From: Schmidtea polychroa
Lineage: Eukaryota
NCBI GenBank assembly: GCA_044892525.1
Contig: CM097885.1
Span: 7,008,001 to 7,072,000 of the forward strand
Direction: 5' to 3'
DNA length: 64,000 nt
A program made the position numbers and the translations under genes. Under the pieces are notes generated by a model. That model did not search any database, was not told the DNA's origin, and saw nothing but the letters and a program-made list of their open reading frames with translations. Below, in pieces: positions 1,068-63,982 of this stretch. Numbering within the stretch: the first letter of the stretch is position 1; each line of letters begins with the position of its first letter.

Positions 1068-1326
1068 TTATAGAATGGCAATTATTATCATGTTCTTTCG
1101 ATGAACAATAATTTGGATAAAGTATACCTATAAAATAAAAATTTAATAAAAAAAAATATATATATATAATTTAAATGAAATATTTTAATAAATGTTTACG
1201 CAAAAATTTACAAATTTTAATTACTAAAAAATAAAAATTTACTAAATTAAAAATATTAACATTTAATTAAATAAAAAATTATATTAAATTTCCTTTAAAT
1301 TATATAAAAAAGTAATCAATACTTAC

Positions 1327-1444
1327 AGTTATGATGTCTTCAACTTCTGAATTCATAAAATCAATAAATCAATAATAATTAAAAATATATTTTCCAAAAA
1401 CACGCTAAAACGAATATTATTTAAACAAACAACTTTACATAACT
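1327..1444 (-). repeat. 3' LTR (118 bp, AGTTATG...CATAACT termini)
   Basis: Direct repeat of 5781-5898; preceded on the minus strand by the polypurine tract. Confidence 0.95.
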
Positions 1445-1456
1445 CTCCCCTTCTTT
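1445..1456 (-). other. Polypurine tract AAAGAAGGGGAG
   Basis: Purine run directly abutting the 3' LTR on the minus strand. Confidence 0.9.
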
Positions 1457-4400
1457 AAGGAACTGCCCATCTCTTAAGCCATTCAATTCGTCTGAGTTTC
1501 TTTGTCGTCCCATCACTCAATTCCACCTGGTGTTCTGACAAAAACTTTGATATGACAAACGGACCTTCATACTGTAGTCCATCTTTGTCACCGATTTTGT
1601 GGTTCTTTCCGAACTAATACTTTCTCCCCCACCGTGAAACATCGATTCGTTCTCTTCTCTGTTTTTATCTCTTTCATTCGTTTAGCTGCTTTCTCACTGT
1701 TCTCTCTTACCAATCTATGTATCTCAACTGTATCCAATGTCGTCTGAGGCAATGTTGAATGAAGGTTAATCTTCCTCCCAAAAACAATTTCAAATGGAGA
1801 AAATCCCGTCGCGCTCTGTTGTGTCACGTTGATACAAAATTCTACTCGAGGAAGTAACTCCGCCCAATTTCGCTCTCCTAGTCCACCTGCTAATGATGTC
1901 GCCAGCAAGTCTCTGACTGTCCGTATTGTTCTCTCAACTAAACCGTTAGATTGATGCTGATATGGTGAACTGAACTGTTGCGTAATACCCAGTCTTCCTA
2001 GATTTGTTTTCATAAAACCACTATCGAAGTTCTTCCCTCTGTCTGACAGACAATTTCGCGGTTTTCCGAAACGGTATATCCACTTCTCCAATATGGCTTT
2101 GAAAATCGATCTCTCGTCTTGTCTCTCCAGTGCGGTCAGACTGACCATTTTGCTAAAACGATCAATGATAACTAGCATATACTTGTACACTCCACCATTC
2201 TTCATGTGTGCTATATCAATGACCAACTGTTCTAAAAATTCTGAACTTATAATCGGCAACAATCGTTCCTTTGTCTTCTCCTGCACTATTTTCCTTCTGC
2301 AGCATATCTCACATACTCTCAAACAGTTTTGTATAGTTTCTTGCATGTTTGGCCAAAAAAATATGTTGCTCATATAGCTAATTAATTTCTTTACTCCAAT
2401 GTGACACATTTCAGTATGTATTCCTTTAACTAACGTATTTGAGTAGTCTATCGGCACCAGGATGACATCTTTACCATTCTTCTCTAATAATAAAAACCCA
2501 TCTTCTAATTTTATGTTGTTATGCAAATTGAAAGGAAATTTCTTTTTATTCAAGTCATCTTTTTTCTCTTCTCCCTGTAACACTCTTGTCATGTGAATGA
2601 AATCCACATCATCTTGTTGCTTTTCTAAGAGTTTTGTCATCGACTCAGTCTTCTGTAATGAGCTGATATGTCTTACTCTGGCTTTTTCTTCTTTTGCGTC
2701 TTCATGTCTAGTCTGGCATTGTGCACATAACATCCCTTTAATCCTTGATATTCCGTCCGCATTTCCATGTTCCTCTCCTTTCCTATATTGAAGATCGAAA
2801 TCATATCCTGAAAGGTTGGCTAGCCAGGTTTGAAATTGCGGGCTTATCGGTTTTTTTGTGTATCTCATGAAAACCAACGCCTTGTGATCCGTTCGTACTA
2901 CAAATGACTTTCCGTATAGATATTGTTTAAAATACATTACATATTCGTGTATAGCAAGTAACTCCTTCCTAGTCACACAATAACCTTTTTCATGGGCGGT
3001 CAAGTGTCTCGACCCATATGCAATTACCACTTCAGTACCATCTTCTTTAGCTTGACATAAAACTGCTCCGATGGCCCCAAAACTAGCGTCTGTATCCAGA
3101 ATAAAGTTTCTATCCATTCTTGGGAAATCTAGAATTGGAGCTTCACACAACTTTGTTTTAAGTAATTCAAAACTATTGTTGCAATCTTCTGACCAATTAA
3201 TCTTTTTCTCACAGCCGGACGTAGCTGCATGTAGAGGTTCCGCAATTTTCGCATAGTCTTTTATAAACTTCCTATAGTAATTGGTCATACCTAAAAAGGA
3301 TCTTAATTGTTTGGCGCATACTGGTATTTCTGCATCTTGGATCTCTTTAATCTTCTTGTCGTTCGTTTTTATCCCACTTGCACTTACAGTGTGCCCTAGG
3401 AATGTCAATTCCTCTTTATACAGATTACATTTTTCTGGGTTAATTCTCAACCCCGCTAGTTGAATTCTTCTGAATACTTCCTCTAATCGGTTATTGTGTT
3501 CCTCTATGTCTTTTCCATAGACAAGAATGTCGTCCAGGTAGACAACAACACCCTTAAATAATATTCCATCCAACATTGAGTGCATCATTCTTTGAAACGT
3601 TGCAGGGGCGGTTGCTAGTCCAAAAGGAAGTCGGTTAAAACAAAACTGTCCTTGCCTTGTACTGAAAGCCGTGACCTCTTGAATTTCCTTCGCCATTCCA
3701 ACTTGATAATATGCTTGACCTAGATCGATGGATGTGAAATATTTTGAATCTGCCAGACAATCCAGTAGAAATCGTGTATCTGGCATTGGAAAAGATATCT
3801 TTTCAGTGATTGCATTCAACCCTCTATAGTCGACACACATCCTTATTGATCCATCTTTCTTAGCCACAATCACTAGTGGCGCGTTCCATGCACTTTTGCA
3901 TTTTCTAATAACTCTCGCTTCTAATAAGTTTGTGACAAGTTCGTCAAGCTTTTGTTCTAAATGCATTGGTTGTCTTCTTGGCTGTAACATTACAGGCCCA
4001 CCTACTATATTCATTTCATGTTGAACAACTTTCGTAAACCCGAGATCAAAAGTTGAAGCCATAAAAATACCTTTGAACTTCCGTAGCAATATGTCTAACT
4101 GTTCATTCTTCCTGCCTCCAAGCATTAATAATGCTTTCTCTTCTCGTTGTGAGTCCACATATGTCCTCCCTACTTGTGACGCTTCAATATTGTCTACCTC
4201 TACCAGTTGAATACCAAATCTCTCCATTGTATCTACACCCCCAATGAAATCTGGACGTATATCTTTGACAACTATAACATTAATAATTCTTTTTTTCCCA
4301 TTCCAATCAGCTTCTATCGTCATTGCTCCTAACGGTCTTTCCATTCCCGTCGAAAATACTCCACAAAGAGAAATTGTGCTCTGCTTCAACCTCGGTTTCC

Positions 4401-4620
4401 CGATCTTTGTCCAACTTTTTTCACTCATAACTGATACTGACGCTCCAGAGTCCCAAAGCATGTCAATCGCCGTCATGTTTATTACAATCTTACTCCACTT
4501 TCTTTTGTCTTTCGTCTCATACATCTTCTGCATCATGTCTTCATTTCGCTTCTTTTTACTGATTATTGTGTCGACCCCACTGACGAAATGAAAGCAATGG
4601 GATCGTCCTTGTTTTTTGGT
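1455..4620 (-). CDS. pol: Gypsy pol (protease, RT, RNase H, integrase); integrase C-terminal GPF region displaced by a 1-nt frameshift at ~1590
   Basis: LWDSGAS protease, RT YLDD, RNase H ILDTDAS...TDH, integrase H/C zinc region and D,D,E core. The frame is open from 4620. The shifted frame after 1590 reads DKDGLQYEGPFVISKFLSEHQVEL...IEWLKRWAVP* and ends at 1455. Confidence 0.95.
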
Positions 4621-5810
4621 TTATCCATTGATTTTTTTATCGTTTCTTCGTAATTACTGTATAAATCTTCTGTTAAATCATCATTATTTCTTTCGTGATC
4701 TTCTTCGTAAATACATGCCACTCTCTTCTGATATCCATTTCTATTTTTAAGCAAAAAACAATCTCTGAATCCATGACCTTCTTTTCCACAGATTAGACAT
4801 TTGTCTTTCATAGGACATTCAAAACGCCGGTGTCCTTTTTCTCCACAACAAAAACACTGACCTGGTGTCAGTTTCACTGGATGAGGCGAATCTCTTCCTT
4901 TGCTGTCATTAAATAACCTTCTTGCAATATCTTTAAGCGATACTGTAGGTATTCTTCTCTCTGGTTCTCCTGTCTGATATCGTCCTCTATACCGCTCATT
5001 TTCATTCTTGTCTTCATTTACAATTGGTACAAACCGACCATTACCAGGTCTATTCCTCTCATGATTAATCTCTCGGTGTTCGTCACGTTGATGTGCAGTT
5101 GTCTTCACAATTGTTCTTTGGTCTAGTCTACCCTCGAATTTACCATTTTTCATCACTGATGCGTAAGAGTCTCTTCTTATGGCATCAATATTGAATTTAT
5201 TGTCATTCGTCATCTCGATCTTCTCCTGAATTTTTGCCATATCCCTGGCATCTTCAAAACTTGTCACTTTCCCTGATAAGAATATTTCTTTTACTCTATC
5301 GTCTTTTGCTCTATTTGAGATAATGTCTCGAACAATCTGTTCATCAGACATTCCAGAGCTAAATACACTTTTAACTAAACTTCTTACTCGTATTTCGAAG
5401 ACTTGGAATCTTTCATCTCTCTCTTGCTGAATTTGAGCTAGTTCCACAATCTTATTAGTAATGGTTTTCCTTACTGTAAAAGTTTCTATAAACCACTCTT
5501 TTGCCATTTCATCGGTCATCTTCGCTATTTTCGCCGCTTCCCATAACATCGATGCCGCATCTGTCAACAAAAGATCCAATGCGTCTACTAGACTTTGATC
5601 TTCTATTCTCAGCCATTCCATAATATCCTTTAGCCAAAGTTCGGCTTCAGATCCAACTTTTCCGTCAAACTTTCTTACATTAAAATTTAGCATCTCACGT
5701 GCTTGTTTTGACAAGGAATCTAACATATTCTTAGTTCCTTTCTTTTTTCCTATCGCATTGATTTCCTTGGCGTGGTCGCCAGTTATGATGTCTTCAACTT
5801 CTGAATTCAT
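4563..5810 (-). CDS. gag: Gypsy gag (415 aa) with two CCHC zinc knuckles
   Basis: CFCCGEKGHRRFEC and CLICGKEGHGFRDC knuckles; located upstream of pol. Confidence 0.93.
   Translation of the reverse strand: MNSEVEDIITGDHAKEINAIGKKKGTKNMLDSLSKQAREMLNFNVRKFDGKVGSEAELWLKDIMEWLRIEDQSLVDALDLLLTDAASMLWEAAKIAKMTDEMAKEWFIETFTVRKTITNKIVELAQIQQERDERFQVFEIRVRSLVKSVFSSGMSDEQIVRDIISNRAKDDRVKEIFLSGKVTSFEDARDMAKIQEKIEMTNDNKFNIDAIRRDSYASVMKNGKFEGRLDQRTIVKTTAHQRDEHREINHERNRPGNGRFVPIVNEDKNENERYRGRYQTGEPERRIPTVSLKDIARRLFNDSKGRDSPHPVKLTPGQCFCCGEKGHRRFECPMKDKCLICGKEGHGFRDCFLLKNRNGYQKRVACIYEEDHERNNDDLTEDLYSNYEETIKKSMDKPKNKDDPIAFISSVGSTQ
4572..4617 (-). promoter_or_regulatory. Predicted -1 programmed ribosomal frameshift signal (A AAA AAC + stem-loop)
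   Basis: Heptamer at 4617-4611 in the gag frame (ccA AAA AAC), 5-nt spacer, then an 11-bp stem CGAUCCCAUUG/CAGUGGGGUCG. Pol lies in the -1 frame and opens one codon before the heptamer. Confidence 0.85.
5764..5781 (-). other. Primer binding site TGGCGACCACGCCAAGGA (probably tRNA-Arg type)
   Basis: TGG start overlapping the last base of the 5' LTR; complementary to a ...GUGGUCGCCA tRNA 3' end. The tRNA identity is recalled, not checked. Confidence 0.8.
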
Positions 5811-5898
5811 AAAATCAATAAATCAATAATAATTAAAAATATATTTTCCAAAAACACGCTAAAACGAATATTATTTAAACAAACAACTTTACATAACT
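5781..5898 (-). repeat. 5' LTR (118 bp) containing the gag ATG at 5810
   Basis: Identical to 1327-1444. Confidence 0.95.
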
Positions 5899-6072
5899 CT
5901 TACATTGTAAATTTTCATTTCGATTTATTGACACATTGACATAATTTTTCTCTTTATTCGTATTACCTAAATTATTAATTAATTAAATCAATAAATTAAA
6001 AATTATGTTTACTTTTTCTTTTCAAATTTCCTTTAATCTTCGATTTTAAATTGTCTTCATTAATATTATTTC

Positions 6073-6078
<6 letters not shown>

Positions 6079-6141
<63 letters not shown>
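6079..6141. repeat. (TA)n microsatellite
   Basis: Direct reading. Confidence 0.95.
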
Positions 6142-6143
<2 letters not shown>

Positions 6144-6279
6144 TAATATCATAATATATATATCATAATATCATGTGTCTATTGCACTTTAGAAGATAAA
6201 CTTTGAAATGGTAAAGGTACTCGTTATAAAAGAGGAATTATAAGTCATTATTAACTCGGATTTCGAATAGTTTATATAA

Positions 6280-6445
6280 ATCACTGATTTCTTTTCAATT
6301 GCCATTGGAATTAGTAAAAAGCTTGACTATAAATCGATATATCGATGTTTTTTGATATATTCTACCGGTCCATAGTCAAGCTTTTTAATATATATATATA
6401 TATAGCGCGTCGGACTCACGTATTTTCGGCAGTCTTTTTCATATA
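6280..6445 (-). repeat. Penelope-type terminal repeat (pLTR) copy with hairpin and degenerate hammerhead motif
   Basis: Similar to 28345-28440 and the reverse complement of 63520-63640. Inverted repeat AAAAAGCTTGACTAT/ATAGTCAAGCTTTTT; motif tgaaaaagactgccGAAAatacgtgag on the minus strand. A partial second copy lies at ~7535-7585. Confidence 0.6.
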
Positions 6446-6449
6446 TAGT

Positions 6450-9250
6450 TTAAAAGAATTAAGGAAATGTCCTAAACAAATTGCTGTAAGTTATTTTGTC
6501 ATTTTATTGTTTATTATTATTATTAATTTCTGTCTCCTTATTTTTTATTATTTTTTATCGTTTAGCTCAAGCAAAAGAAAAATGATAAAATAAAAAAGCA
6601 AAACGAAATCAACCAAATTGAACTAGAAATTAAAGAAAAGGAAGAAGAAAACGAGACATTACAGACAATAATAGAGAGATTTAATGTAAATTTCTATGAA
6701 AATTAAATAAAAAAAATCAAATAAATGATTTTTTAACAACTAGATCGAGATCCAAAACATTCAAGAGGAATTAGAACGTAGATTAGAAAAGAAGTATACT
6801 GATGAAATCCGAAATCACAAAATAAAATTGACAAAACTAGAAAATGACCTAGATTAAGCAAATTCAGAAAATTCAGACATACAAATTGCTGTAAGTTATT
6901 TTGTCATTTTATTGTTTTTGCTTATATTTTATTTTTATTCAATTTTTTTTTAGCTAGTAAAGTCGAAAAAAATGAAGAATATTATCGATTGGGACTGACT
7001 ACAAAAATTTCTGAAATGGAGGAATTGAAATCAAAGATTCAAAATGAAAATGACCATTTAAAAAACCAGTTAACAACACAAACCAATCGCAGAACGAAGT
7101 GAGTGAAATTTAGTTAAATTTAGTTAAAATTTAGTTAATAGGTTAAAAAATTAGATAAATAAGAGGTAGATAAAAAATAAAAAGATAAGAGATAGGTAGA
7201 TAAATAAAAAGTTTAAATAAATATCAAAAATAAATAAAATAATGAGGCTCGGTAAGTAGTATTTGCTATTCTAACTTTTTTTTGATAATTCGAATGAAAA
7301 TGAATTGTAATTACGTAATGATCTTTATTTAAAGCGTTAGCATCTTTGAATATTAAGTATGTTTTATAATGCGGGTTTTTTTGTTTTCTCTGTTATAGCT
7401 TGCTTCTTGTTGTTGTTATTAACATTTTAATTTACTTTTATTTATGCAGCTTTTCTGATTCATTCTTTTGATTTCATTATGATTTTCAAATTCTTAATTT
7501 TTTCAATTTCTTAAAATATATATATATATATATATATATCGATATTTTTGGTATTCACGTATTTTCGGATGTCTTTTTCATATATAGTTTAAAAGAATTA
7601 AGGAAATGACCTAAACAAATTGCTGTAAGTTATTTTGTCATTTTATTGTTTATTATTATTATTAATTTTTTTAATTTGTTACCCCTGATCTGGATGGCCC
7701 ACTACCACCTACTGATATCAATGGTAATTTACTTTTCACCTATTATATTATTTTACTATTATATAAAGAGCAATTTCATTTAGCTCATGCCACTTAAAGG
7801 ATAAAAAAATATTCGAAAAAGAAGTCAATGAGTTACTACCAAAAATAAAAGATATGGAAGAGGAAGGGGAAACATTTCGCATGGTAAAAGTGACAGTAAA
7901 TGTAAATTTCTATCATTTCCTGATGGTATTTTAAATGATATTTTAACCACCAGGCGGAGATCAAAAACATTAGGAACAGAATGAAAAGAAAATTAGAATT
8001 GAAGTATGACAAAGAAATTGAAAAGCTAAAAATCCAAAGTTTACAACTAAAAACTGAGAAATCCGGACTCGAGAATGAGCTGGACATTTTGGAGCTTCAA
8101 AAATTAAACGCAGAAAATGCTGTAAGTTGTTATTATTTTGTCAGTTTCTATTATTTTCTGATGGTATTTCAATTGATTTTTTAACCACCAGGCGGAGATT
8201 AAAAACATTAGGAACAGTATGAAAAAAAAAATTAGAATTGAAGTATATAATTAGAAGAAATGAAGAAACAGCTGGAGCAAGATGTAAAAATAATGGAAGA
8301 AGAAAATTATATGAATGAGATTTTAATAGATAGATTTAAGGTAAATTTCTATACAAATTAAATTAAATAAATGATTTTTTAATCACTAGGATGAGATCGA
8401 AGACATTCAACAAAAATTGCAAAATCAAATAGAAACAAAGTATTTGAAGGAATTTGAAGAAAAACAAACCAGCAGTCTCTTTCAACGTTAACAATAAAAA
8501 CCGTTTTGAGTAGCCATTCTTCACCAGTAATTCAACTTATTTATCTACACTTTTTACTGAATTTTTAAAAGTGGAAGATAAGCACCATGATCTATAAACC
8601 AATCCTTTCACCGTGTTTCTTTTATATTTAAATTCACAAAAACTCTCTGGGGTAATATAGAGGCCAGCTTTAGCAGAGCGTCAAAATTCAAACATAGAAA
8701 TTGCTGTAAGTTATTTTGTCATTTTATTATTATTATTAATTTTTTTTAATTTGTTACCCATGATCTGGATGGCCCACTACCACCTACTGATATCAATGGT
8801 AATTTACTTTTCACCTATTATATTATATTACTATTATATAAAGAGCAATTTCATTTAGCTCATGCCACTTAAAGGATAAAAAAATATTCGAAAAAGAAGT
8901 CAATGAGTTACTACCAAAAATAAAAGATCTGGAAGAGGAAGGGGAAACATTTCGCATGGTAAAAGTGACAGTAAATGTAAATTTCTATCATTTCCTGATG
9001 GTATTTTAAATGATTTTTTAACCACCAGGCGGACATCAAAAACATTAGGAACAGTATGAAAAGAAAATTAGAATTGAAGTATGACAAAGAAATTGAAAAG
9101 CTAAAAATGCAATGTTTACAACTAAAAACTGAGAAATCCGGACTCGAGAATGAGCTGGACATTTTGGAGCTTCAAAAATTAAACGCAGAAAATGCTGTAA
9201 GTTGTTATTATTTTGTCATTTTATTGTTTATTATTATTATTAATTTTTTT
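6450..9250 (+). pseudogene. Degenerate, tandemly duplicated intron-containing coiled-coil gene
   Basis: K/E/L-rich exons (e.g. MKRKLELKYDKEIEKLKIQSLQLKTEKSGLENELDILELQKLNAENA) end in a recurrent donor gct|gtaagtt (~6485, 6890, 7625, 8121, 8705, 9196). 7620-8170 is duplicated at 8700-9250; stops and frameshifts are present. Confidence 0.6.
8470..8690 (-). mobile_element. Short Penelope-like RT C-terminal fragment
   Basis: The minus strand reads TVKGLVYRSW and, in another frame, LLVKNGYSKRFL, resembling the PLE L..NGYP..F motif. Confidence 0.4.
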
Positions 9251-10799
9251 AAATTTAAAATAAATCCAGTTAAATGCACACAGTAATCTGATTTTTCTAA
9301 AAAATCCTACTGTCAATTGAGTTAACTAGGAGACCCGTAGCAGATGGTTTACACTATGCGTACCGCGCATCAAGCCTAAAGATTAGATTTGCCTAAATTA
9401 TTACTAATGCAATTAATCAAATTGAGTAAATTCAGTTAGGCTCTACATTTTGGTGATTTCATTGATTTCTTATTTAGTGTTGCTTTTTGGCCTTCTGTTT
9501 ATAATGAGAATTGTTTCTTTGAATATGACTTTTTCTTCTGGATGTTACCATTGACTATTATTTTAATTGAAATATTTTTTCTTTCGTTTGTTGGTTGGAG
9601 ATGTCTGTTCATTGAGGATTTCCCACAAGGATCTAGATGTTCTTTAACTCTTTGGTGCAAGGTCCTGAGTGTACTTCCAATGTATATTTCCTTACATATA
9701 TTGCACGTGATTGTGTTGTTTGCCAGAGCTTTTCTCAATGTCCAAGATTTATGTGCTATCCGAATTGGAAGACCGGTGCGTTTAAGTTCTTTCAGGATCT
9801 TGAAGTCGAGTTTGTCACTGATGAATGGGATATTAAGATAGAAATATTTCTTCTTCTTTTGTGTTAATTCCCTAGATCTTTTTGGGGTAGAATTCATTCT
9901 TTCAATGTCTTCATCTTGGTATCCGTTTCTGTGTAAGATTTTATTGAAATTTGGTTGCTGTTTGAAGTTCTCGTTTTCTTCAGTGCATCATTGGCTATTC
10001 TTTGTTTCTCGTTTTTTATGACATGAACTTTTTGTAAGTATGGAAGCGCTGATCTTTGGTGCATAAATATTTCTTTGGGGGCTGGTTGTCTGTAGAACCC
10101 GTATGTTGGAGATTTTGTTTCTATTTTAATTCTTAAATCCAATAAATTGAGGGATCCATCTTCTTCCGGATATTCGATTTCATGCATGAAATATTTCCTC
10201 TGCTTCTTTTCTGCTTTTTGGTCGTGATGAAGATATCATCAACATATCTTGCATAGAAACCGATGGGTTGTATGGTCCTCAGTGTCTGTCGTTCGAGGTT
10301 ATCCATAAAGATCATTGCTAGCAATCCTGATATGAGAGAACCCATTAGCTTGTTATAGGACCTTTAGCTTGTTTATATATATTTTGCTCAGTATTTTTGT
10401 TATTCATTTCCTTTATTAACAAGTTGCTTTCTCTTATTTTTTTTTATTTTTTTTAAATTTCTTTTCTAAACATTGAATAGCATCTATTGGATCGATAGAT
10501 GTGTATAGTGATACGACATCAAGACTCAATTTGAATTCTATATGAGAAGTTATGTTATTTAATCTTGTCATGAGGCAGTCGCCGCTTTGAAAATGATGTG
10601 GTATCGTGTCCAATAATGGTTTCAAGATCTTTGCAAGGAGCCAACTTGTTTTAGATGTTTATCCATTTGTGTTGGACACTTTAAGTCTAATTTTGATAGC
10701 AGGACCCTCTTTGTGGATTTTAATTAGGTGGTTGAAGTTGGGAAGATCAGAATGCTTTGTGACGAAGCTGTTGGTTACTCTGTTGTTGAGCTTCATTTC

Positions 10800-12487
10800 T
10801 AGTGGCCTGCCGAACTTTGATTTGAACTTCGATTCGGACCAAAGTTCAAACACTTCGGAAACTTCGCACTTCGGCAATAGACCCTGTACGATCCAAATAG
10901 TGAAATTTTGCTTGAGCGATAATAAATTATTATTGTTCCGTGATTATTTATTATACTTATTATTATTTATACTTATTATAAAATTATATAGAAATAATTG
11001 TGTCATTTTTCTGTCATAAAATTGTGTCGCAGGCTTATCAGATTTAGGCTGCTACATACACACGATTCAGTTAGTGGTGGGTGCAGGATTAAAGAAGACG
11101 CAAAAGGCTGTCATTGATGCAGTTGCAACTTCCCGCAACATTGTAACCCACTTCCGGCATTCACCATTAGCCAATGATCGACTAGAAGAGATTCAAAAAT
11201 CTTTTCAGCCGGATGCTGCCGGAAACCCATATCCCGTCACACCGCCTGATACAAGATGTACAGACAAGGTGGAACTCCACGTTTTATATGTTGGAACGTT
11301 TGATCGAACAGAGAAAAGCAATAGCTCTTTACATCCAAAAGACAACGAAGTCACCAATCTGACAAACAATCAGTGGAACTTAATGGAAAGGGTCGTGTCG
11401 ACATTGCGGCCATTTGAAGAGGAAACGTGGAATGCTAGTTTGTCAACTGCAACAAGCGGAATGATTATTCCAAGTGTGCGTGTACTTCAGGCAGTTTTGA
11501 CGAGACCAGCAAAGGAGGGTGACGACCTCTGCATTCAAACAATGCGTGCTGAAATACTTGCGGATCTCAGCCGCAGGTATGCTAACGTTGAAAATGATAA
11601 GTTGTGCGTGTTATCTACTGCTTTGGATCCAGTGTACAAGCTTCGTCTCTTTAACGCGGAAACTGCTGCCACTGCAAAACAATGGCTTCTGGATGCAATG
11701 AATGCTGTAACGTCGACGGACAACTCGCGTGATGAAGTGCCAGCAGGCCCAACACCTTCCACATCATCTTCATCAGCCACATCTGCTTTGGATAGCTACT
11801 ACGACGACATGCTTGGAGCTACACAATCCAACTCTACAGATTCCGGTAATCTCCAACAACAGCTCGATGCATATTTAACGGAAGCGTGCAACCAACGACA
11901 CTCGCCTCCAAAAGATCCAATAGAATATTGGAAATCAAGGCAATACACCTATCCTCAACTTGCACTGGTCGCCAAACAATTCTGTGCTTCTCCTCCTTCC
12001 AGCGTGGATAGTGAAAGAACCTTCAGTTTGGCTGGTCTTATATGCGATGACCGTCGATCAAACTTAACACCAGCCAAAACTGAGATGCTTCTATTTTTAA
12101 TGAAAAATCTCGATGTGGTCCGTTTTGACTACTAATAAACTAATGAAGATGTATATATTTATATAAACACATGTATTTTTTTATTTTTTCGTTTCACGTT
12201 ACTTTGCTTGTTGCGAACAGATCTATGTTATATAATTTACATCCATGTTTCAAAAGACAACAAAATGAACACTTCTCAATATCTTGTATTATCACCCATT
12301 GTATAATTTTTTCAGTTTTATTGATATGATTCATTTTAATAAATCGCCGTAGGTCATTGCAGTAGGTACAGGTCCCTAAATTATTTTCACGCACCAGACA
12401 TTTGATTCAACTTCGGCTTCGGCCAAATAGTAATTTAAAAATTTGAACTTCGGACTTCGGCAAAAAAGTCACTTCGGCAGGCCCTTA
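10800..12487 (+). mobile_element. Internally deleted hAT (Ac/ZBED-like) DNA transposon
   Basis: 8-bp TSD TTCATTTC (10792-10799, 12488-12495), imperfect TIRs TAGTGGCCTGCCGAA / TTCGGCAGGCCCTTA, and subterminal (AC)TTCGG repeats. Confidence 0.93.
11047..12135 (+). pseudogene. hAT transposase C-terminal half
   Basis: CxxH motif (GCYIHTIQL), QDVQTRWNSTFYMLERL in a shifted frame (~11245-11335), LDP motif, and C-terminal dimerization domain (YWK...YPQLALVAK...PPSSVDSERTFS). Confidence 0.9.
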
Positions 12488-13276
12488 TTCATTTCCAAAG
12501 CAATGGCTTTCCATACTTTGTTGATCGTCATTTCGATGGTGTTTGGTGACATGCGGCTGACTCTCTTGTATGTTTCGATGTTGCCGAAGTGTTCCTAACC
12601 AGCTTCACAGTATCAATATTTCTCTATAATGCAAAATTCTCTCCTTGTCACTTGTTAAGTAAACGTATGGTTTCTTTTTAAGGGGTTTTAATAGTGCTCG
12701 TTCATCTTTCGTTATGTTTGAGAGTGTTGAAACCTTTGAAAGTGTTGAATCTAATTCTGCATCAGGATTTAGTTGATAGAGTTTATCTGTGTTTATGTAT
12801 ACTGGGAGTTTTTCTTTGTTAATTTCATGAGGTATTGTATTGTTCCATTTGATCTGATACGCAATGCGACAAAGAGCGGTTTTGAAATTGAGGATAGCTG
12901 CTTCATCTATTTCACTGTTTATACTGAACTTTAGTCCTAGTGAAAGTATTCCTTTCTCACATTCGGAAAGACAATTTGCGAGGTCGGTTACCAAATCTTT
13001 GTTTACTCTATTCACTGTAATGCTTGTGTTTCCATCCAGGGCTTCATGGTTCGTACTAAAGCCTGCTTTGAGCTCCTTTTTTCTCAAAAGGTATTTGATT
13101 CTTTTGTCAAATCGCAAAGAATAATGTGCTTCTGCTTTCATGAAAGCTTGTCTTTGTACCTCGTAGATCAATTCTTTTGGCTGGTTATTCAAATACGTTT
13201 TCAAAATGCTTTCTTGATTCTATTGTTCCCGATGAGTTAATAAATCAATTTTTTATTGAAATGTTTTTCTAATTTT

Positions 13277-14742
13277 TCATAATTTTTCAATTCTGCACCT
13301 GAGTAGCAATTTATCACTTTTGGCTGCTAATTCATTGATTGAGCTATCAAAACTATAAATGTAAATTGGAATATTTCTGTCATTTGACGGTTTCCTCCAT
13401 CCGGCATAATTAGGCATATGTATATATTTCATTGACTTGCTCATATAAATGCTGCCATTTGCTGGATCGATCACATCGATTGTCACCGATTGTTTGAACG
13501 GCCAATCCAATTGCTCATCATTTACCCCACGCATCAAACAGAAACCAGCTGAAATACACAAATTACCCCAAATCCACACCGTCAAGCACATTTTGTAACC
13601 GATTGGCCCGGAATAAAATGCCTCGCTGTAAATATATTCACCTCTCTTTTGTTGTGAAAATTTATCGATTTGCCATTCAAAAAATCCATAATTTATATAT
13701 TTTTTATTTGGTAATTTTCTTTTAATAGGTCGAATTTCATTGGCGCATTTCGCCATTTCAAGCTGCAACTGAATCTCAAATTCAAACATTTCAGTAAATC
13801 AATAAATCACCTTTTCATTCTTCTGTTGCAGCTGCTGGTCGCATTTCTCTTTCATTTCATCAATTTGCTGTTGATATCTTGATTCAATTACCTCAATTTG
13901 CTGTCTGATCTGCTTTGCATCATTAACAAATCAATAACAAATCAAATCAATAATCAAACTTTATTGATTGATCCAATATTTGTCTCCATCTCCATTCTCA
14001 ATGAGCGATTCTCATTCTTCACTGTCACCATTTCCTCATTCAATTCTCCTATTTCCCTTCTGTTGTCCGCCTCTTTCCTTTCAATATTGCACAATTTCAC
14101 CTACAATCACAAATATCAATTAAATTAATTACAAATAAAATTTACATTGATATTATCAAATTGTTGTTTGAATTGCGTCATTTCTCTTTTCAATTCGATA
14201 ATTTCGTTACGCAATTTCATATTCTCATCTCTCATTGATTGCATCTCATTGCATAAATTACTGATCTGATCAATCAATAATTTGCTGTGGCCTTCATTGT
14301 TCTCATTGAGATGGACTTTCATTTCGTCCTTCTCCACCCCAATCATTTCGCACCCAATTCTATTGAATGGACATCTAATTGGCTGCTTGTTGCATGTTCT
14401 CATATGGCTCTCCATCATGCACAACTCGGTTTTGAATTCACAATTTTGCATTGGACATTTTACAATGACTTCAGATATTCTTAAGTTAATCGCCTGATCT
14501 TGAAAAACATTTTCATTGAAATTAAATATTTGAACTTGACAATATTTTGCTACTCCTGGACAGAATTTATCTTTGTCATCCAAAAAATGCTCAATGCAAT
14601 CAGAGCAAAAGCGACAACCACAAGGAGCTTGGCAAGCTTTTATCATTAAACATTTGCAAATTCTGCATATCAATTCATTGCTAATTTCATTATCAAATTC
14701 AAATTTATTTCTCTTCATCATTTCCCATACGCTTGCAAACAT
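13277..14742 (-). CDS. TNF receptor-associated factor (RING, TRAF zinc finger, coiled coil, MATH); exons ~14742-14146, 14100-13960, ~13912-13811, ~13768-13277
   Basis: RING-like CRIC...QAPCGCRFCSDC, zinc finger CPMQNC...HMRTC...CPFNRIGC, MATH motifs GYKMCL...LMRGVNDEQLDWPF, and in-frame GT-AG introns of ~45 bp. Confidence 0.92.
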
Positions 14743-16224
14743 TTTATCTAAAATTATCAAAATATTACAACATTTTTAACCTTCAATAAATCTTACTTAT
14801 TATATTAATTATTTCCTCTGACGTTTACAATTTCAATATTTATAATTTGTATTTTAATGTAGATAAACAAACAATTTATAAATATTATATTTTAGCTTTG
14901 AGTGCAATTCGAAATTTTATTAATGTTAATTTTCAGAGTTTTTCTCATTTATTTTAAATATTACAAAATTATTTAAATTAAAATTTGATAACAAAAAGTA
15001 AAATTTTTATGGAAATTTAAATAACTTTTTAACGGAAAATCCAAATTAAAAATAGATCAAAATATAAAAATAAATATTTTTCATAAAATATTAAAATTAA
15101 AAAATATTAATTTAAAGAATTTTATTTGAAATTAGAATTTATTTAAACAGATTAGAAAAGAATTCAAAATCATCAGAGCAAAAATATAAATTTTAAAAAA
15201 TCAATATTGTTAATTCAAATACTTTTTAACAAAATAATAATATGGCAATCAAGGGGAGAAAATGGCTAAGATTAATTAAAAACAATTTATGCTAATAGTT
15301 TCAACTGAACAATTTCCAAAAATCATTAGCAAGGGATATTTTATATATGTATTTTTATTTTCGATTGTTCCTTTTGATTTGGTTACATTAGAGACACCTT
15401 ATTAATACCATCCACAAGATCAGGTCGAGAGGTCAGGCTTCCTTGACTACGTCCAGCAGACAGTAAGAGATGAAATGTGCCCAAATGTCATTTATAAGTT
15501 AAGATACCCCTCGAAGCAAACAATCCAACAAACCATAATTTATAAGCTCCGGAATCGGTCCACACGCGTTTGCCATGCGAATCAATTAATCAAATTTAAG
15601 CAGTTGAGAGAATATATTTATGAAAACTAATTTTCGACAAATATCTTTAATTGTTCAATAGTACTGAAGATCAGATTGCAGCAACTCCTAGGGAGAAAGT
15701 AAAGGTGATCTGTTATCATGTGAGCTTTGGTGGCAAAACTACTCTCTCTCTGTCAGCCATCTGAAATTATGGACGGCCGATAAAGAGGGTCCTAAGACTG
15801 TTCTGGGTAAAAGTTGGAAGAAAAAACCATTTGTTTATTCAAAACAATGAAACAGCGAGTAAAGAAAAATAGCAAAGAAATGCAAGAAATAAATAAAATG
15901 GAAGAGAATGAAAATATAGATAAAACGGAAAAAACAGAGAATATAATAATTATTAAATTAAAAACTTAAGAAATATGAAAATTAAAAGATATCGATTAAA
16001 ACAAAAAATTATTAAAAAGAATAAATGAGTAAATTTAGAAAATAAGAAGTGATTTACGTCAAAGGAATCAAACGAAACCAAGGTTACAAATTATATTTCC
16101 TTATAATAACTAATGTCTAAAGTAGTATGATTGGTCACCGCTAGACCAGGTCACCGCTGGACCACATATATAATAAAGTTTAATGGGTTGTGTGTGTGTT
16201 TTTATGTTTTTGACTAATATTTGC

Positions 16225-16269
<45 letters not shown>

Positions 16270-16275
<6 letters not shown>

Positions 16276-16386
16276 GTTTAATGGGTCGTGTAAAAAATAA
16301 TTTAGGTTTTTCACTAATATTTGCGTTAATAATAATAAAGTTTAATGGGTTGTGTATCTATGTGTAAAAAATATTTTAGGTTTTTC

Positions 16387-16432
<46 letters not shown>

Positions 16433-16797
16433 TGAAATTGTATTTGAAAATAATTTGCGACATGTTGATTGTGAGCAGTACCTTTGTGACCATTACCCTT
16501 AGGGTGACAGAATATCTTGTCGGATAGACTAGGAGTATATATAATAATAATCATAATAATAATATTAATAATAATAATAATATTGATTAAAACTTTGAAA
16601 ATAATTCTTTGAAAATAATACTTTGAACAATATTTGATGTAAAAGTTCCTGAAATAATCATGAAAATGTTGAAAATCGTGAAAATATTGAAAATGTAGAA
16701 AATTATGAAAATATTGATAAATATTTAAAATAGCAAATGATGAAAATGTTGAAAATCATGAAATTGATGTAGAAATTAAGTTTTATGAATAATTGCA

Positions 16798-16893
<96 letters not shown>

Positions 16894-17110
16894 TTTGAAA
16901 ATAACATCTTCCACACGGGCGTTAATATTTTAAAAGAAAATATTGAAAATTAAAAAATAATAATATGTAATCAACGATTTAAACAAAATTATATTATTAC
17001 GTATTCAGTAATTAAAACAAAAATTATTAGTTCTAAAAATATTAGGCATCGATTACGTAATAGTTCTAAAAATATTAGGCATCGTTCTTAAAATATTAGG
17101 CATCGTTCTA
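16270..17110 (+). repeat. ~840-bp direct repeat, second copy at ~21590-22430
   Basis: Near-identical sequence; differences mainly in (AAT)n tract lengths. Confidence 0.9.
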
Positions 17111-17119
17111 AAAATTAAA

Positions 17120-18800
17120 TTCATTGGTAGTTTTTAGAGTTAGCGGGATTTTACTAACATTATTACTAACCTTTTTGTGAATAATTGAAAGAATATTTTG
17201 AAATTTAACGTTTTAGTGTTAATTCTAAGACAAATTTAATTAATTTCTTGATAATTTGCTATATTTTATTGACTTGTTTTTAAATTTACTTTTAAATAAA
17301 AATTATTTTTAATGACAGTTAGGTTAATAATTAGAGTTTTTACAATAATCAAGTGATTATTATTTAATTTTTGTAAAAATTATTGTAAAATATACTGAAA
17401 TTTGTGATTTTAAAAGATATATCACGTTATAATTGCTATATAATTAGCTGAATCGATGAAGAATTATGATCAATCAATATATTTCATCTCTAGTTAGGTA
17501 TTTGATGGTAAATGTGGTGAAATATTTGTAGAAAATATTGATTTTAGTAAATTTTGATTTTTTAATGGGCTCTTACTACATGAATTTAGATACTAAATTA
17601 TTTCAATGGAAGGATGTCTGTAACAATTAAATAAAATTCATATTTTGAAGAATTTTCTATGGATTTTAAGAGAATTGATATATTAAAGGTATGATATTTT
17701 AAAGTCGGTTGGTTTAGATGGTAATATATGATTTTTAAGGGGGTGTTTAAAATGATAGAAATATTTGGTGAGGGATCGGTTAAGGTGGAAATGATTGAAA
17801 TCTCTATTTAAATCGACAATGTTCTTATTGGTAAAATTTTAAAGGGAAATAGTTAGTATTTAGCTATGAATTAATAATAGTTCCTGTGAAATTATATCGT
17901 TTTAGAGGTTTATTAGGTTGTGATGAATTTTATTGCACAGTAATTTAGATTTATGTTTTAGAACCAGTTTTTTATTAATTATCCACTGTTTTATTAAGTC
18001 GTTTAGGGTTAATGATCAATTTACTTGGTTTTCACAATGAAATATTTGAAATCTTTAGAATTAATTGGGATTGATATCAAAGGTTATTGCTTTAAATTAT
18101 TTACTTAAGAAGTTATTTTATTCATTGTGGGGACATCAGTGACAAAACTTGAGAAATATTGACTTAAAAGTTGGAAATCGACAACGGCTAAAGAAAATTG
18201 ATCTTTATTGAAGGAATTTTATGATTTTAATTAGATTTCTAGAAATTAAATCGGTTGAATATTAAAGGTGAAATCTATTGAAGGAATATTATTATCGGAT
18301 GGATAAATGATATTTTGCTAAATTACCTTTGCTAAATATTATTTTAAATAACTAAAAATGAGAAAATTAAGCACTATCCATAAATTGATGGCACAAAATA
18401 TCCATGTTTTGGTTACTCAAACATCTTAAATTTCTCGCAAAGATATATTACGTCTAATGATCATCTAATTAAATTAGAAAATAATTGTTACTTTATAATA
18501 TATATTTCTAACTAATAAGCCCCTTAATTGGATAAATGATAACCATATTTCTATTATGACTCCTTTAATTATTTTTGCCTCAAACAAATTTACTCTAAAT
18601 GATAAAGAATTTAAAATTATCAATGAATAATGACCATGTTTTTCTCATATTATTAACTATTGTAACGAACATTAGATGAATAAATTACCTTTTGCTTTAA
18701 ATGTCTAAAAAGTTAACCAATAAATTAGTCGCTCGACATAAGTGTAAAGTTACATTTAAAATATTCACAAATTTCTGATTATCTTACCTAAGAATTTCTA
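17120..18800 (+). pseudogene. Possible highly decayed SF1/PIF1-like helicase inside the Polinton-like element
   Basis: Motif remnants in the expected order across frameshifts: IDE..MI (~17452), FDGK (~17500), NWIN (~18525), KLPFALNV.K...SLD (~18682-18737). Confidence 0.3.
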
Positions 18801-21059: not shown

Positions 21060-21144
<85 letters not shown>

Positions 21145-21418: not shown

Positions 21419-21593
<175 letters not shown>

Positions 21594-28075: not shown

Positions 28076-28401
28076 TTATCTCCTTCGTCTTTGATCTTTG
28101 TCAACTAATTTTTCTTCATCTTTTTGTACACTAACGATCAGTATTGGATAATGATTAAATTTAATTTTTATTAAAGATCATCCTAAAAAATTCTAGTTTC
28201 TTGGTATCAGCATAAATGACTATTAAACAACTAAAGAAGCCTTTTACTGCCAAATATGTATTAATTGAAAAAAACATTTTATTAATAATAAAAAACATTA
28301 ATTTAATTATAATAATAATAATAAAATTAATAATAATAATAATTGAATTGAAACGATAGTTTGAAGACTATAAATCAGTAATATATCGATGTTTGTTGAT
28401 A

Positions 28402-28436
28402 CTCACAAATTTTCGGCACTGCCTTTTTCAAGTGAA
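28402..28436 (-). ncRNA. Variant minimal type-I hammerhead ribozyme motif
   Basis: uucac-UUGAAAA-a-GGC agu GCC-GAAA-auu-u-gugag: stem I, U3/A8 variant core, 3-bp stem II, palindromic AAUU stem III. Confidence 0.6.
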
Positions 28437-28990
28437 TTTGATCATCATTACAACAAATATTCATTGTTGGGGGATAATAAATTTATTTCGTATTTTATAA
28501 TAAATTTATTGGTTTAATTATATACTATTTATATTTTATTTTAATTACCCAAAAAATATATTTCCTATTTTTTAAATTCTGTAATTTAATTATATTTTTA
28601 TTTTTTTAATAAAATAAGACGTTTTTTATATTTTAAATATTTTTTTAATTTTAAATTTTAAATCTAATTAAATATTAATTTAAGTATTAATTTAGTTGAA
28701 TGTTGATGGAAGGTTTAAGTCTTTTGATATAAAGTGTATTATCGGCTAATCTTTGCAATGAGTTTCTGAACGCATCCTGTAACATTTTGCATTTTGTTTC
28801 GTGTAAGAGTGGTGCTGATTTGTGCACTTTTTCCAGTGTTCATGATAGTTGCTGGTTTTGCTGTTGACGTGTTTGTTGAGTCTTGTTCTAAGTGTTTCGC
28901 CTATGTACGATGCGTTACATTTTGTGCAAGTAATTTGGTAAACGATGTTCTTTGAGAAGCAGAAACATTTGGTGGAGGATTGGCATATAC

Positions 28991-29324
28991 CAACGGTGGG
29001 CAAATGCGGCTCTTCGTTGAGTAAACTGCGGCTCATTGATAATTGAATTTTTGATAATTGAATTTGAAAATTGAATTCGATTTTTTTATTTTGAAATTTT
29101 TTCAACTGAATTTTTAAAAAAAAATTTTTTGTTGCAATTGTATTTTCATAAATGTTAAAAATTAACGAAACATTGTACAGCATTCAGTTTAGCTCTCGAC
29201 GAGTCTACTGACATTCAGGATGTTCCACAATTAGCCGTTTTTGTCCGCTTTGTATCTTCTGACGTTTAAGTCTTTTTTAATCAAATTAATGAAATAAAAA
29301 AAAATATGTAGTTCACTATGGTGG
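28991..29324 (+). mobile_element. Small internally deleted Buster/Charlie-type hAT inserted into the PLE
   Basis: Left end CAACGGTGGGCAAATGCGGCTC; internal peptide FSLALDESTDIQDVPQLAVFVRFV (29182-29265); flanking duplication (G/C)CATATAC. Removing it rejoins the PLE frame as HRDCICQSSTKC. Confidence 0.8.
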
Positions 29325-31134
29325 CCATATACAATCTCGATGAAATAGGTCTGATGATAGAGATTTTTGAGACTTACGAAGCTGTGATTTCAAAGGTGCA
29401 TCAGTTATAAAAATTGGGCGAATATGAACTGGCAACACCATATTGCGAATGTTAGATCTGATTGTGTTACATGTCCTATTGTTTAAAAAAGGGAAGTGTA
29501 GGTATATTACTCGCTTATTGACATGTTCATTTTTTGTATTATGCCTATTAGAGTTATATTTACTCAAGAAGTATTTTTCTACGAACTCCTTTGGGTATCC
29601 ATTTTGTAAAAACCGTGTTTTAAAGTTTTCTAGGGTTTCTTGTGTTTTCGTTTTGTCCGAACAGTTCCGTATTGCTCTTTTTCTTTCTTCTAATAATAGA
29701 GCGATTTTTCGTTGGAGTGGAACGTTACTTTCCCAAGGAAGAATGTGCCCACTGTGTAGACTTTTAGTGAATAAATCTGTCTTGAATGTGAGCGTGTTTG
29801 GACCTTCAGAAGGACTTATCATGGTATCTAAGAAAGCAATCTTGCCTTCTGGGTCAGGTAGCTTCAGAGTGAATTGTACATTAGTGTTAGTGAAGTTTGC
29901 ATGTGTCAAGATTATAATGAGAGGTACCGTGGAGACTATGAAAATATCATCAATGTATCTTGCCACGTTAGGATTTTATCTCCAAAAAATGATCTAATAT
30001 TTGTTTTTATATGATGCATGTAGAAATGGCTAAAATCGGCGAAAGTTTGTTACCCATAGCTAGACCATGAAAGTTGTTCAACGGTTTTCCTTTAATTATT
30101 ACAGTATCTGAGTTTATGGCTAGTTTGACAATTTCTATGAAATCTTGTTCAGATAAGTCTGCAAAAACAGTTTCTAGTTTGAAGGTTTCGAAGAAGGAAG
30201 CTGCAACTGTGAAGACGTTGTTCTCTCCAGTGAGACCGATGGATCCGTAAAGATTAGAGACATCAAGAGATCCCCAAAAGTATTGTTGCTCTAGTGATGT
30301 TGAAAGAGATAGTTTTGTAATTTCTGCAACAAATTGGATTGTGTTTTTAAGATGACAGGGGATAAAATTTAGTAGATTTTTAAACATCGATATATTACTG
30401 ATTTAGTCTTCAAACTCTCTTTTCAATTCAATGGATAAAATAATCAGTGGTGAAATTGGAAGAAATAAAAATTCTTCTAATAATAATAATAATAATTGTC
30501 AGTTAATTCTAAACTCATATTAATGATATTTTTTTAATAATATTTATTTCAATAAAAAAATTTTCCTAGATTTAATTCCAAAATTATCGAACAGCTGTGA
30601 TTCAAATTCAAGCATTAAAATTCAGCAAACTATTTTCAAAATTAATTTTTTATCAAATTGTTACATATTTTAATCTATAATAAATTGTTTTTTCATCTTT
30701 ATCAGTTACACTTAAAATACTAATTTTAATATTCGATTACTTATTAAAAATTTCTAATTAACCAAAACCTCATTTTGTGTTGCTTCCGTTTGTTTAGCAT
30801 ATATGCCACTTAATTTTCAGTTTGCGTTTAAATTGTTTTACATTGCGTTGAATTTTTGTATTTTTTCATTATTTTATAATTCTCAGTAATTTTAATGAAA
30901 TATCGAAAGTATGATATTGTGAAAGAATTAAATTAAAAATATGAGAATGGAATCTAAATATTATTTCACATGAAAAATAAATGAAAAATAGCGCTTCAAT
31001 TTGATGCGTTTCAGGTTGCATAGCAATTTGGCAAAACCAATTATGGACACAAAGTGAGAGTGTATTTCCGAAATTGGATCAACTAAAAAATTGCCCCCTT
31101 AAATTAAAATGTAACTAAACACATTAATCTAAAC

Positions 31135-62600: not shown

Positions 62601-63982
62601 TGATTTTTAAATCCGAATGATCTTCTAAAATTATATTTTATCTATTTTTCTATATTATTTTTCTATATTATTTTTAATTTTTAATTTAATTTTTTATAAA
62701 AGCTATTCTCAAGATCAAAAACAACAAATCAGATTGATGATTTCATTGATCTGTTCCTTAGTATCGATTGTTGGCCATCTGTTTATGATGAGAATTGCCT
62801 CCTTAAATATGACATTTTTCTTTCCATCCTTGGTTGACATTGCAGAAAATGTCTGTATACCGAGGATTTCCCATCAGGATCTAGATGTTCATTAAGTCTT
62901 TGGTGCAAGTTCCTGAACGTACTTTCAATTTATATATCTTTCCATATATTGCACGTGATGCAGTCAATAACGTTTTTTTAGAAGCATATTTTCTTCGGTT
63001 TATGGTAGCCTTTCCACTGTGAAAATATTTTATTTTTTTGTGTTGTTTGCCAGAACTTCTCTCGATGTCCAAGACTTATGTACTATATGAATTGGAAGGC
63101 CAGCGCGTTTAAGTTCTTTCAGGATCTTGAAGTTGAGTATGTCGCTGATGAATGGAATATTCAGATAAAAAATATTTCTTTTTCTGAGTTCTAGCATCTC
63201 AGAATTGTTAGGAATCATCTTTATTGATAACCTCGAACGGCAAACACTGAAGATCATACAATCCATCGATTTCTACAATAGATATGTAGACGATATCTTT
63301 ATCACGACCAAGAGCAGAAAAAAAGTGGAAGACATTTTTATACGGGAGCCATTTCAAGAAAACCATAGGTTTTCCAATAAATATTATAAATCTACTAAAT
63401 ATCTATAATTCTATAGGAAGAATGTGGCTTTGCTATTGATTTTTTGCTATATATTGAATTATTAATTGAATTATAAATTGAATTTATTAAAAAGAAAGCT
63501 TGAAGACTCTAAATGTAAAAATTCACTTGAAAAAGGCAGTACCAAAAATTCGTGAGTATCAACAAACATCGATATATTACTGATAAACAGTCTTCAAGCT
63601 CTCTTTTTAATAAATTCAATGGTAAAAATAATCAGTGGAGAAATTGGAAAAAGTAAGTTCTTATAATATATAAATTTTAACACGCTAGCTCCCATGAGAC
63701 ATACATGTCGTGCGTTTGAGCCGCTTGGACCGCCATACTTGTAATAATACAGGAAATATTAGCCGAACAACCGACTTGGCCCAGGAGGACAATTTTTTCT
63801 TAACATATTGGCAGCTAACGTGCTAAATTCGACTTATTTGAAATGAGATATTATTGTAAATAATTCTATTTGATAGTCAATTATAAATTTTATCACTCTT
63901 TTGACTTGGTTTATTACATATTTATTTCAGTGTCAAATTTACACGATTCACTCAATGGAAGAATTTGGAATTGAATATCAAC
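44803..63982 (+). CDS. GRK2: G protein-coupled receptor kinase, GRK2/3 (beta-ARK) type, 5' part; exons 44803-44915, 44964-45040, 45083-45156, 45203-45304, 54308-54394, 54445-54506, 63931-63982; continues beyond the window
   Basis: [33 protein letters not shown]-terminus; RH-domain exons up to [19 protein letters not shown] junctions in phase. Confidence 0.95.
45374..46654. repeat. Tandem duplication of a ~620-660-bp extremely AT-rich unit in GRK intron 4
   Basis: Anchors ttattgttagcgta...cgacgtaaatcaat and gtgacgttc...gtttaaaacct each occur twice. Confidence 0.88.
46819..47423 (+). repeat. Probable solo LTR
   Basis: TGTTGAG...CCCAACA; family 3' motif. Confidence 0.6.
49683..49808 (+). repeat. 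Interstitial (TTAGGG)n tract
   Basis: Telomere-type hexamers with recurring gggtaatatagg interruptions. Confidence 0.95.
50497..50585. repeat. (TA)n microsatellite
   Basis: Direct reading. Confidence 0.95.
51650..52817. mobile_element. Rearranged hAT element
   Basis: TAGGGTTT...AAACCCTA ends and CGAGTACTCG subterminal repeats; + strand [19 protein letters not shown]...RSRL (52400-52540); - strand [14 protein letters not shown] (52130-52170); no TSD. Confidence 0.8.
53726..53890 (+). mobile_element. Short gypsy PBS/gag-start remnant
   Basis: tgggaaccacgcc (PBS-like) followed by [30 protein letters not shown]. Confidence 0.45.
55550..56545 (+). pseudogene. Decayed Tc1-like transposase
   Basis: HTH-like start (KGFSQKRIG), [14 protein letters not shown], and (Q)DNVRLH remnants in order. 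Confidence 0.65.
56590..57313 (-). pseudogene. Gypsy gag remnant with an in-frame stop and a CCHC knuckle
   Basis: 183-aa ORF ([21 protein letters not shown]) continues after TGA at 56762 towards [15 protein letters not shown] (~56600-56647). Confidence 0.8.
57640..58500 (+). pseudogene. Decayed gypsy RT/RNase H fragment
   Basis: [40 protein letters not shown] remnants. Confidence 0.8.
60517..60617. mobile_element. Tc1/pogo-type MITE (101 bp)
   Basis: TIRs CTGTATTTCCCTGAAAATAAG / CTTATTTTCATGGAAATACGG flanked by TA. Confidence 0.8.
62735..63345. mobile_element. Penelope-like fragment of the same family as 9450-13240, with an internal inversion
   Basis: 62735-63200 (-) matches 9455-9890 ([19 protein letters not shown]); 63205-63345 (+) encodes [11 protein letters not shown]...[11 protein letters not shown]. 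Confidence 0.85.
63477..63655 (+). repeat. Penelope terminal repeat with hammerhead-like motif (63522-63556) inside a ~32-bp inverted repeat
   Basis: ttcacTTGAAAAaggcagtaccAAAAattcgtgag (G12 position mutated); arms 63477-63508 and 63589-63620; similar to 28345-28440 and 30382-30470. Confidence 0.7.

Follow-up and report, generated by a model that had tools for sequence, protein, structure and literature searches.

Coiled-coil exons beside a GIY-YIG Penelope copy in Schmidtea polychroa probably mark a nest of separate insertions

Do a reverse transcriptase (RT), a GIY-YIG endonuclease (EN), intron-split coiled-coil exons and hammerhead-type repeats that lie side by side make up one mobile element? 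The question is raised by positions 6284-13239 of a 64,000-nucleotide stretch of Schmidtea polychroa DNA (contig CM097885.1, positions 7,008,001 to 7,072,000; here called the window), which has a G+C content of about 28%, is dense in repeats and comes from an animal with short AT-rich introns. A sequence-only reading had proposed a Terminon-like composite or a cargo-carrying unit in a GIY-YIG Penelope-like element (PLE). We find that 6284-13239 is probably debris left by a nest of separate insertion events in an animal genome rich in repeats. Beyond the window, evidence came from protein searches and from contigs of four public runs (X1, X5, X7 and X10) placed on 6200-14900 at 85% likeness; all statements on contigs and joints cover the 32 of 26,744 contig pieces and 15 of 304 joints listed from this placement. 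Contig depth (summed) is not copy number, and the placement of near-identical contigs is uncertain. X7 and X10 were taken as RNA, since a spliced TRAF intron joint is present there and absent in X1 and X5; no run is recorded as RNA. The pieces are as follows.

6276..6283, plus strand: candidate left target-site duplication (TSD), ATAAATCA, where homology to the pseudo-long terminal repeat (pLTR) ends.
6282..6390, minus strand: pLTR piece (intron-like part and ATG) with an inverted fold-back copy forming a hairpin (fold z=-4.3).
6414..6442, minus strand: broken minimal-hammerhead remnant, then (TA)n.
6446..7098, plus strand: coiled-coil block 1 (exon tail 6446-6485; exons 6566-6685, 6744-6890 and 6954-7098; introns of 80, 58 and 63 nt).
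7533..7582, minus strand: second broken hammerhead/pLTR remnant, ending in (AT)12.
7585..9256, plus strand: coiled-coil block 2, about three decayed exon-pair units of ~0.5 kb, head-to-tail (exons 7784-7901, 7954-8121, 8251-8340, 8390-8477, 8859-8976 and 9029-9196, plus strand).
8478..8675, minus strand: high-copy insert (~200 bp) splitting a coiled-coil exon, seen from contig depth and translation and overlooked by the sequence-only reading.
9257..9457, unstranded: low-copy spacer repeat, found elsewhere with other flanks, replacing the Penelope 3' end (X1 records 2 and 3; X7 record 27).
9450..10791, minus strand: Penelope family A RT, thumb and GIY-YIG with several frameshifts and stops (Pfam, self-comparison, contigs).
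10800..12487, plus strand: hAT element, internally deleted, with terminal inverted repeats (Pfam Dimer_Tnp_hAT, E=4e-16).
12496..13239, minus strand: Penelope family A N-terminal part (LGLKF), with no upstream pLTR, abutting the 3' end of a TRAF gene.
13240..13247, plus strand: candidate right TSD (the same 8-mer), also the probable TRAF polyadenylation end, where TRAF-paralogue contigs end.

Contig depth differed sharply between the Penelope copy and the exons. In X1, depth over the 3' half of family A exceeded that of the two exon blocks 59- and 94-fold, and in X5 it exceeded that of block 1 155-fold; at single positions, X1 reached 834,421 at 9910 versus 324 at 7980 and 423 at 8883. The X1/X5 depth ratio was 8.3 for block 1 and 0.06 for block 2, against 3-5 for family A, and these unequal ratios indicate that family A and the exon blocks do not move together. 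The ~200-bp spacer at 9257-9457, which the sequence-only reading had missed, continues into other sequence on the exon side in all three listed contig pieces, and into other sequence on the RT side as well in a 1,478-nt X7 contig. Contigs with such other flanks identify it as a separate repeat between endonuclease and exons.

Two further Penelope loci in the window allow comparison.

28346..30480, minus strand: Penelope family B, whose minimal hammerhead (28431) is the only complete one; our pLTR reference.
62734..63673, unstranded: second family A fragment (head-to-head), without coiled-coil exons, beside a family-B-like pLTR with its own fold-back.

The family A RT/EN recurs at 62734-63339 with 69-88% identity, and no coiled-coil exons were found near it; tblastn and the donor motif matched only 6.4-9.2 kb in the window. 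The claim that the same pLTR lies beside the same RT at 62735-63655 stands for the RT/EN but not for the pLTR, which is 89% identical to that of family B (28.3-30.5 kb), only about 70% identical to the 6.3-kb piece, and has lost G12. Family B itself has, at its 5' end, a pLTR piece in inverted orientation, and both of its flanks carry an 18-bp repeat within (TAA)n. Families A and B gave no DNA or tblastn match to each other; their thumb and EN match significantly in pairwise comparison.

Positions 13239-9450 on the minus strand are a dead, frameshifted copy of an ordinary GIY-YIG Penelope. Minus-strand frames run from 13219 to 9450 through N-terminus, RT, thumb and GIY-YIG, so the endonuclease is C-terminal, following RT and thumb. 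The order of RT then GIY-YIG, as first read, is borne out by two Pfam matches that both fall under their cut-offs: RVT_1 at 10136-10363 (minus strand, E=1.8e-6, 28.3 bits against 29.6) and GIY-YIG at 9502-9987 (minus strand, E=6.2e-4, 20.5 bits against 22.6). The N-terminal part carries an LGLKF motif, which we take to be diagnostic of Penelope-type elements. With at least four frame changes, stops and the hAT insertion, the copy has no single open reading frame (ORF). It has neither of its own pLTRs: likeness to the second copy (62734-63339) stops at 9450, and the spacer at 9257-9457 comes next in place of a 3' hammerhead pLTR. The copy has ~77 bases fewer at 9711 than other family A copies (loose contig ends; 62959-63038 in the second copy), the RT-EN linker being partly deleted, and a homologue search yielded nothing. 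The ~1.7-kb element that splits the RT, also overlooked before, is a hAT with terminal inverted repeats, a dimerisation domain and an 8-bp TSD, TTCATTTC, at 10792-10799 and 12488-12495; its empty site is seen in contigs of X1, X5 and X7, which connect 10791 directly to 12488. At its other end, the family A copy starts ~17 nt past the TRAF AATAAA (13257, minus strand).

The TRAF-like gene (13277-14775, minus strand) encodes RING, TRAF zinc finger and MATH domains, has many paralogous contigs and is spliced in X7 and X10.

The hammerhead repeats were assessed in the window with Rfam profiles and a relaxed motif scan. Repeats at 6.3 and 7.55 kb are homologous to those at 28.4, 30.4 and 63.5 kb (local scores 58-75 versus shuffle maxima of 36-66, with five of six pairs exceeding the maximum). 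Rfam hammerhead ribozyme (HHR) profiles gave zero matches in the 64-kb window, and the relaxed scan gave one complete minimal hammerhead, at 28431 (minus strand), with a U3-A8 core, an extra base before stem II, a three-pair stem II, a palindromic AATT and all six stem I pairs. As described in PMC4209133, minimal PLE hammerheads have a core 3-9 with C3-G8 or U3-A8, G12A13A14, and stems I and II; the 28431 motif has in common with the metazoan type-I forms the U3-A8 variant, the extra base before stem II, G10.1-C11.1 and a palindromic 15-16 region. Unlike those forms, the copies at 6.4 and 7.55 kb lack U3 (having A3 instead), most of stem I (one or two of six Watson-Crick pairs) and part of stem II. 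Judged by motif, 28431 thus qualifies as a minimal PLE hammerhead where the 6.4- and 7.55-kb copies do not, and 6414-6442 and 7533-7582 are broken remnants of a genuine pLTR ribozyme. Hammerhead repeats had been read at 6280-6445 and ~7555-7580: their pLTR origin holds, their intactness as ribozymes does not. A hammerhead pattern scan of metagenomes gave one chance 24-nt match, beside an unrelated gene.

The two remnants also have a common history. The junction of remnant and exon tail near 7.55 kb is a 97% copy (114 nt) of 6416-6529, and beyond this common junction the exons are different paralogues (38% amino-acid identity). Because they have one duplicated junction in common, we count the two remnants as one event. 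Block 1 lies between two direct remnants from this junction, and block 2 has one.

The coiled-coil module is broken gene remains and not a single-copy gene. On the plus strand, antisense to the Penelope, 6446-9256 alternates exons of type a (~40 codons) and type b (49-56 codons) in which charged or glutamine residues make up 43-59%. Introns are GT-AG, 49-80 nt long (two of 153-159 nt), and in phase 0 wherever exon frames open, as the sequence-only reading had recognised in outline; donors are GTAAGT/GTAAAT and acceptors AG, the donor type being that of the TRAF intron 14101-14145 (spliced in X7 and X10). Exon copies are paralogous in five of six tested pairs (shuffle test, at most 1/1000), and a 530-bp duplication (7617-8147 and 8698-9222) is 97% identical, which confirms the tandem partial duplications proposed earlier. 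These duplicates differ by no synonymous and five replacement changes, and both of their a-type exons are frameshifted; across the module frameshifts occur in three a-type exons. In block 1, exon 6744-6890 has an in-frame stop (at 6855) and exon 6954-7098 a frameshift. The exons belong to a multigene-family member that has kept its introns, as seen from multiple contig variants and from elevated depth in X1 and X5. They are thus multi-copy, and the case that had been named as counting against the composite proposal, a single-copy gene, does not apply.

Searches for the source of the exons gave little. Exon b and an exon-a alignment matched none of the longer proteins (472 and 1,189 candidates), and metagenome and viral contigs gave no exon relatives, single short exons being a weak query in each case. 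The Atlas search returned generic short coiled coils with low recognition only, and the PDB nothing better than E 0.96. The sole match among 1.84 billion representative proteins, a low-complexity insect repeat protein, was rejected, as was the neighbouring TRAF coiled coil as a source (14 pairs compared, 5/500 shuffles at best). Presumably the exons resemble intermediate-filament coil 1A/1B, a likeness that has no Pfam or PDB support. By its motif the 8478-8675 insert looks to us like the thumb of a third Penelope family, a reading that no tool confirmed; as a thumb it gave no significant match to families A or B (200/2000 shuffles at best).

A nest of separate insertions could have arisen as follows. 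A multi-copy coiled-coil gene with internal repeats (exon pair a-b, ~0.5 kb per unit) would have left a copy that decayed at the locus, and the 5'-truncated pLTR of a family-B-like Penelope would have joined one of its exon ends where the sequence is rich in TA. This junction may then have been copied once, by recombination between donor/intron starts that are nearly identical among the repeats, yielding the two "hammerhead repeats". The 200-bp high-copy fragment in the exon and the truncated family A next to TRAF would be independent later insertions, as would the 200-bp repeat at the family A 3' end and the hAT in the family A RT. The order of these events, and the separate arrival of family A, are our most plausible reconstruction.

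Several observations weigh against this history. The 8-bp repeat ATAAATCA flanks 6284-13239 on either side. Depth of the block-2 exons in X5 is 84,000, half the 157,500 of family A. A pLTR of the same type lies downstream in sense at both of the two family A loci in the window. The RNA run X10, where hAT depth is zero in four bins, nevertheless has exon contigs with introns retained (depth 9-16), although X10 contigs carry no strand information. The chief rival is a one-off Penelope-mediated capture, in which reverse transcription of an unspliced antisense transcript, running from truncated family A through the exons to the pLTR, was followed by integration of a ~5.3-kb unit at the TRAF 3' end (the hAT coming later), or in which the pLTR moved the exon blocks alone in trans, like a rotifer non-ribosomal peptide synthetase (NRPS) gene. 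We regard such a capture as possible but doubtful. In its favour, the two ends carrying the 8-mer were defined independently, introns are kept in exons that come from a multi-copy family and in the X10 contigs, and block 1 is enclosed by two pLTR remnants in direct orientation that both run out into (TA)n, family B likewise sitting in (TAA)n. The chance of such a match between AT-rich position pairs is 0.4% within ±2, 1.6% within ±5 and 5% within ±10, and six junction pairs were tried. However, the window has 14 occurrences of the 8-mer, whose left copy overlaps a rival TSD, TATATA at 6273-6278, of a 110-bp mini-insertion (6279-6388); the right end coincides with the place where TRAF polyadenylation is expected; the hammerheads are both broken and have one common junction; there is no full pLTR on the upstream side; and no empty-site joint is among those listed. 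Because the 8-bp repeat is found at both ends, the cargo-carrying unit of the sequence-only reading keeps this modest probability as a single insertion, with a linkage that is putative.

The precedent for such a capture comes from rotifers (PMC3846280). Like the pLTR-framed host genes of Adineta vaga described there (NRPS and leucine-rich repeat genes), the locus has an intron-retaining multigene-family member beside pLTRs and a possible 8-bp TSD. In A. vaga there are two direct and one inverted full pLTR and an empty allele (same source), whereas here there are broken remnants of one junction, fragmentary exons and no empty site among the listed joints. If ATAAATCA is a true TSD, the locus would be a second animal case of a Penelope moving intron-containing gene pieces, so far seen in rotifers, and would directly test the idea that introns are retained by way of an antisense template. 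If it is nested debris, it is an ordinary repeat remnant and a caution that hammerhead-like remnants with neighbouring exons do not make a composite element.

On the transcripts, one X10 paralogue contig (record 9) stops matching at 6742, two bases short of the acceptor (6744), where 65 other letters take over. A contig that ends at the acceptor while keeping the next intron gives a hint of sense-strand, partial splicing. No coiled-coil splice joint is among those listed, which says nothing either way.

The exon pair is also amplified in a sample-specific way in X5. Summed depth over 7655-8236 and 8819-9109 was 61,000-105,000 in X5 versus 2,000-8,000 in X1, and at 7980 it was 100,667 over nine contigs in X5, 324 in X1 and 0 in X7 and X10. 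This amplification of a coding-type exon pair is a separate lead on the birth of satellites from coding exons.

A broader version of capture is unlikely: a pLTR would have captured the antisense intron-retaining exon pair, and the resulting chimaera would have moved with the help of GIY-YIG Penelopes from at least two families, once with the family A RT as a single insertion with an 8-bp TSD, and been amplified several hundred-fold in one population, giving intron-intact exon shuffling and population polymorphism. We consider it highly unlikely that the exon pair, with or without a hammerhead remnant, is a self-amplifying mobile or satellite-like unit, whether a tandem array, a non-autonomous pLTR derivative or spliced cargo carried by a large DNA element, for example the Polinton next to it. 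The X5 depth at 7980 and the three head-to-tail ~0.5-kb units would fit it, as would DNA left of the (AT)n that we take, from its motif, to be a Polinton-like polymerase. However, the X5 bin with the second hammerhead junction holds 396 (near-identical contigs may have gone to 6.4 kb, placement being uncertain) and depth in the X5 pLTR bin does not exceed what would be predicted from family A, so the hammerhead remnant seems not to ride along; the listed joints include no tandem joint, and amplification is confined to one run. Animal retrozymes are derived from pLTRs, according to a preprint (10.64898/2026.07.22.740005).

Hardly credible is a Terminon-like composite with the coiled-coil module as a fixed accessory of a GIY-YIG Penelope, as the sequence-only reading had suggested: RT, EN, coiled coil and hammerhead remnant are ordered along one strand axis, and Terminons have coiled-coil ORFs and HHRs (PMC6431247), but here the RT is fused to GIY-YIG, no telomeric repeat follows any hammerhead in the window, the module is antisense, intron-split and broken, the second family A copy is exon-free, a spacer lies between, the complete pLTR is family B's, and X1 exon depth is decoupled from the RT, which largely refutes the idea. 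The same text describes Terminons as EN-deficient, with telomeric repeats that follow the hammerhead and with coiled-coil ORFs as accessories. The locus resembles Terminon/Athena elements, as this source presents them, in that a Penelope-type RT, coiled-coil sequence and hammerhead-type repeats lie close together, and shows none of the hallmarks tested (RT without fused EN, reverse-complement telomeric repeats after an HHR, coiled-coil ORFs as a regular part). A scan of the window for four telomeric motifs next to HHRs gave only a (TTAGGG)n patch at 49683-49810, which is interstitial. Listings from searches of the open-access literature included no GIY-YIG Penelope in which an antisense coiled-coil module is fixed; supplements may contain such cases.

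The closest comparison for the Penelope part is with canonical EN+ PLEs (Penelope/Poseidon, Neptune, Nematis), for which head-to-head truncated copies and microsatellite targets are standard (PMC8557442). The window agrees with that description in RT followed by GIY-YIG, head-to-head truncated copies, a minimal-hammerhead pLTR and AT-microsatellite targets. Unlike canonical EN+ PLEs, the family A copy is dead, with neither of its own pLTRs and with a partly deleted RT-EN linker.

pLTR pieces occur at five places in the 64 kb, and a solo degenerate hammerhead remnant of the same pLTR type lies at 59031-59052 (minus strand). Directly after the hammerhead cleavage position comes a 39-nt intron-like stretch, GT...CTGAT...AG (28406-28368, minus strand; 63552-63590, plus strand), followed by an ATG (at 30.4, 63.6 and 6.3 kb); it would fit a putative intron in a 5' untranslated region within the pLTR. 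The pLTRs at 28346-30480 and 63519-63673, 89% alike, adjoin two Penelope families with weakly matching proteins, which suggests pLTR sharing or swapping, or nested insertion.

Elsewhere in the window, a Gypsy element at 1326-5900 has open gag and pol frames, identical 121-bp long terminal repeats and a CTTAC repeat at both ends, and is inserted upstream of the frame 213-1067. We take this frame to be a Polinton-like polymerase, a family label with no Pfam match. At ~27500-28100, ~250 bp from the family B pLTR, lies a decayed, apparently intronless sequence that we assume from its motif to be actin-like. A weak match to the Alu domain of metazoan signal recognition particle RNA at 20292-20390 (29.6 bits, E 0.0008, below cut-off) is possibly a 7SL-derived repeat. 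Dispersed repeats laced with (AAT)n extend across 16170-23000, a near-perfect palindrome of 150 bp stands at 31135-31285, and an AT-rich tandem duplication of 620 bp occupies 45372-46656.

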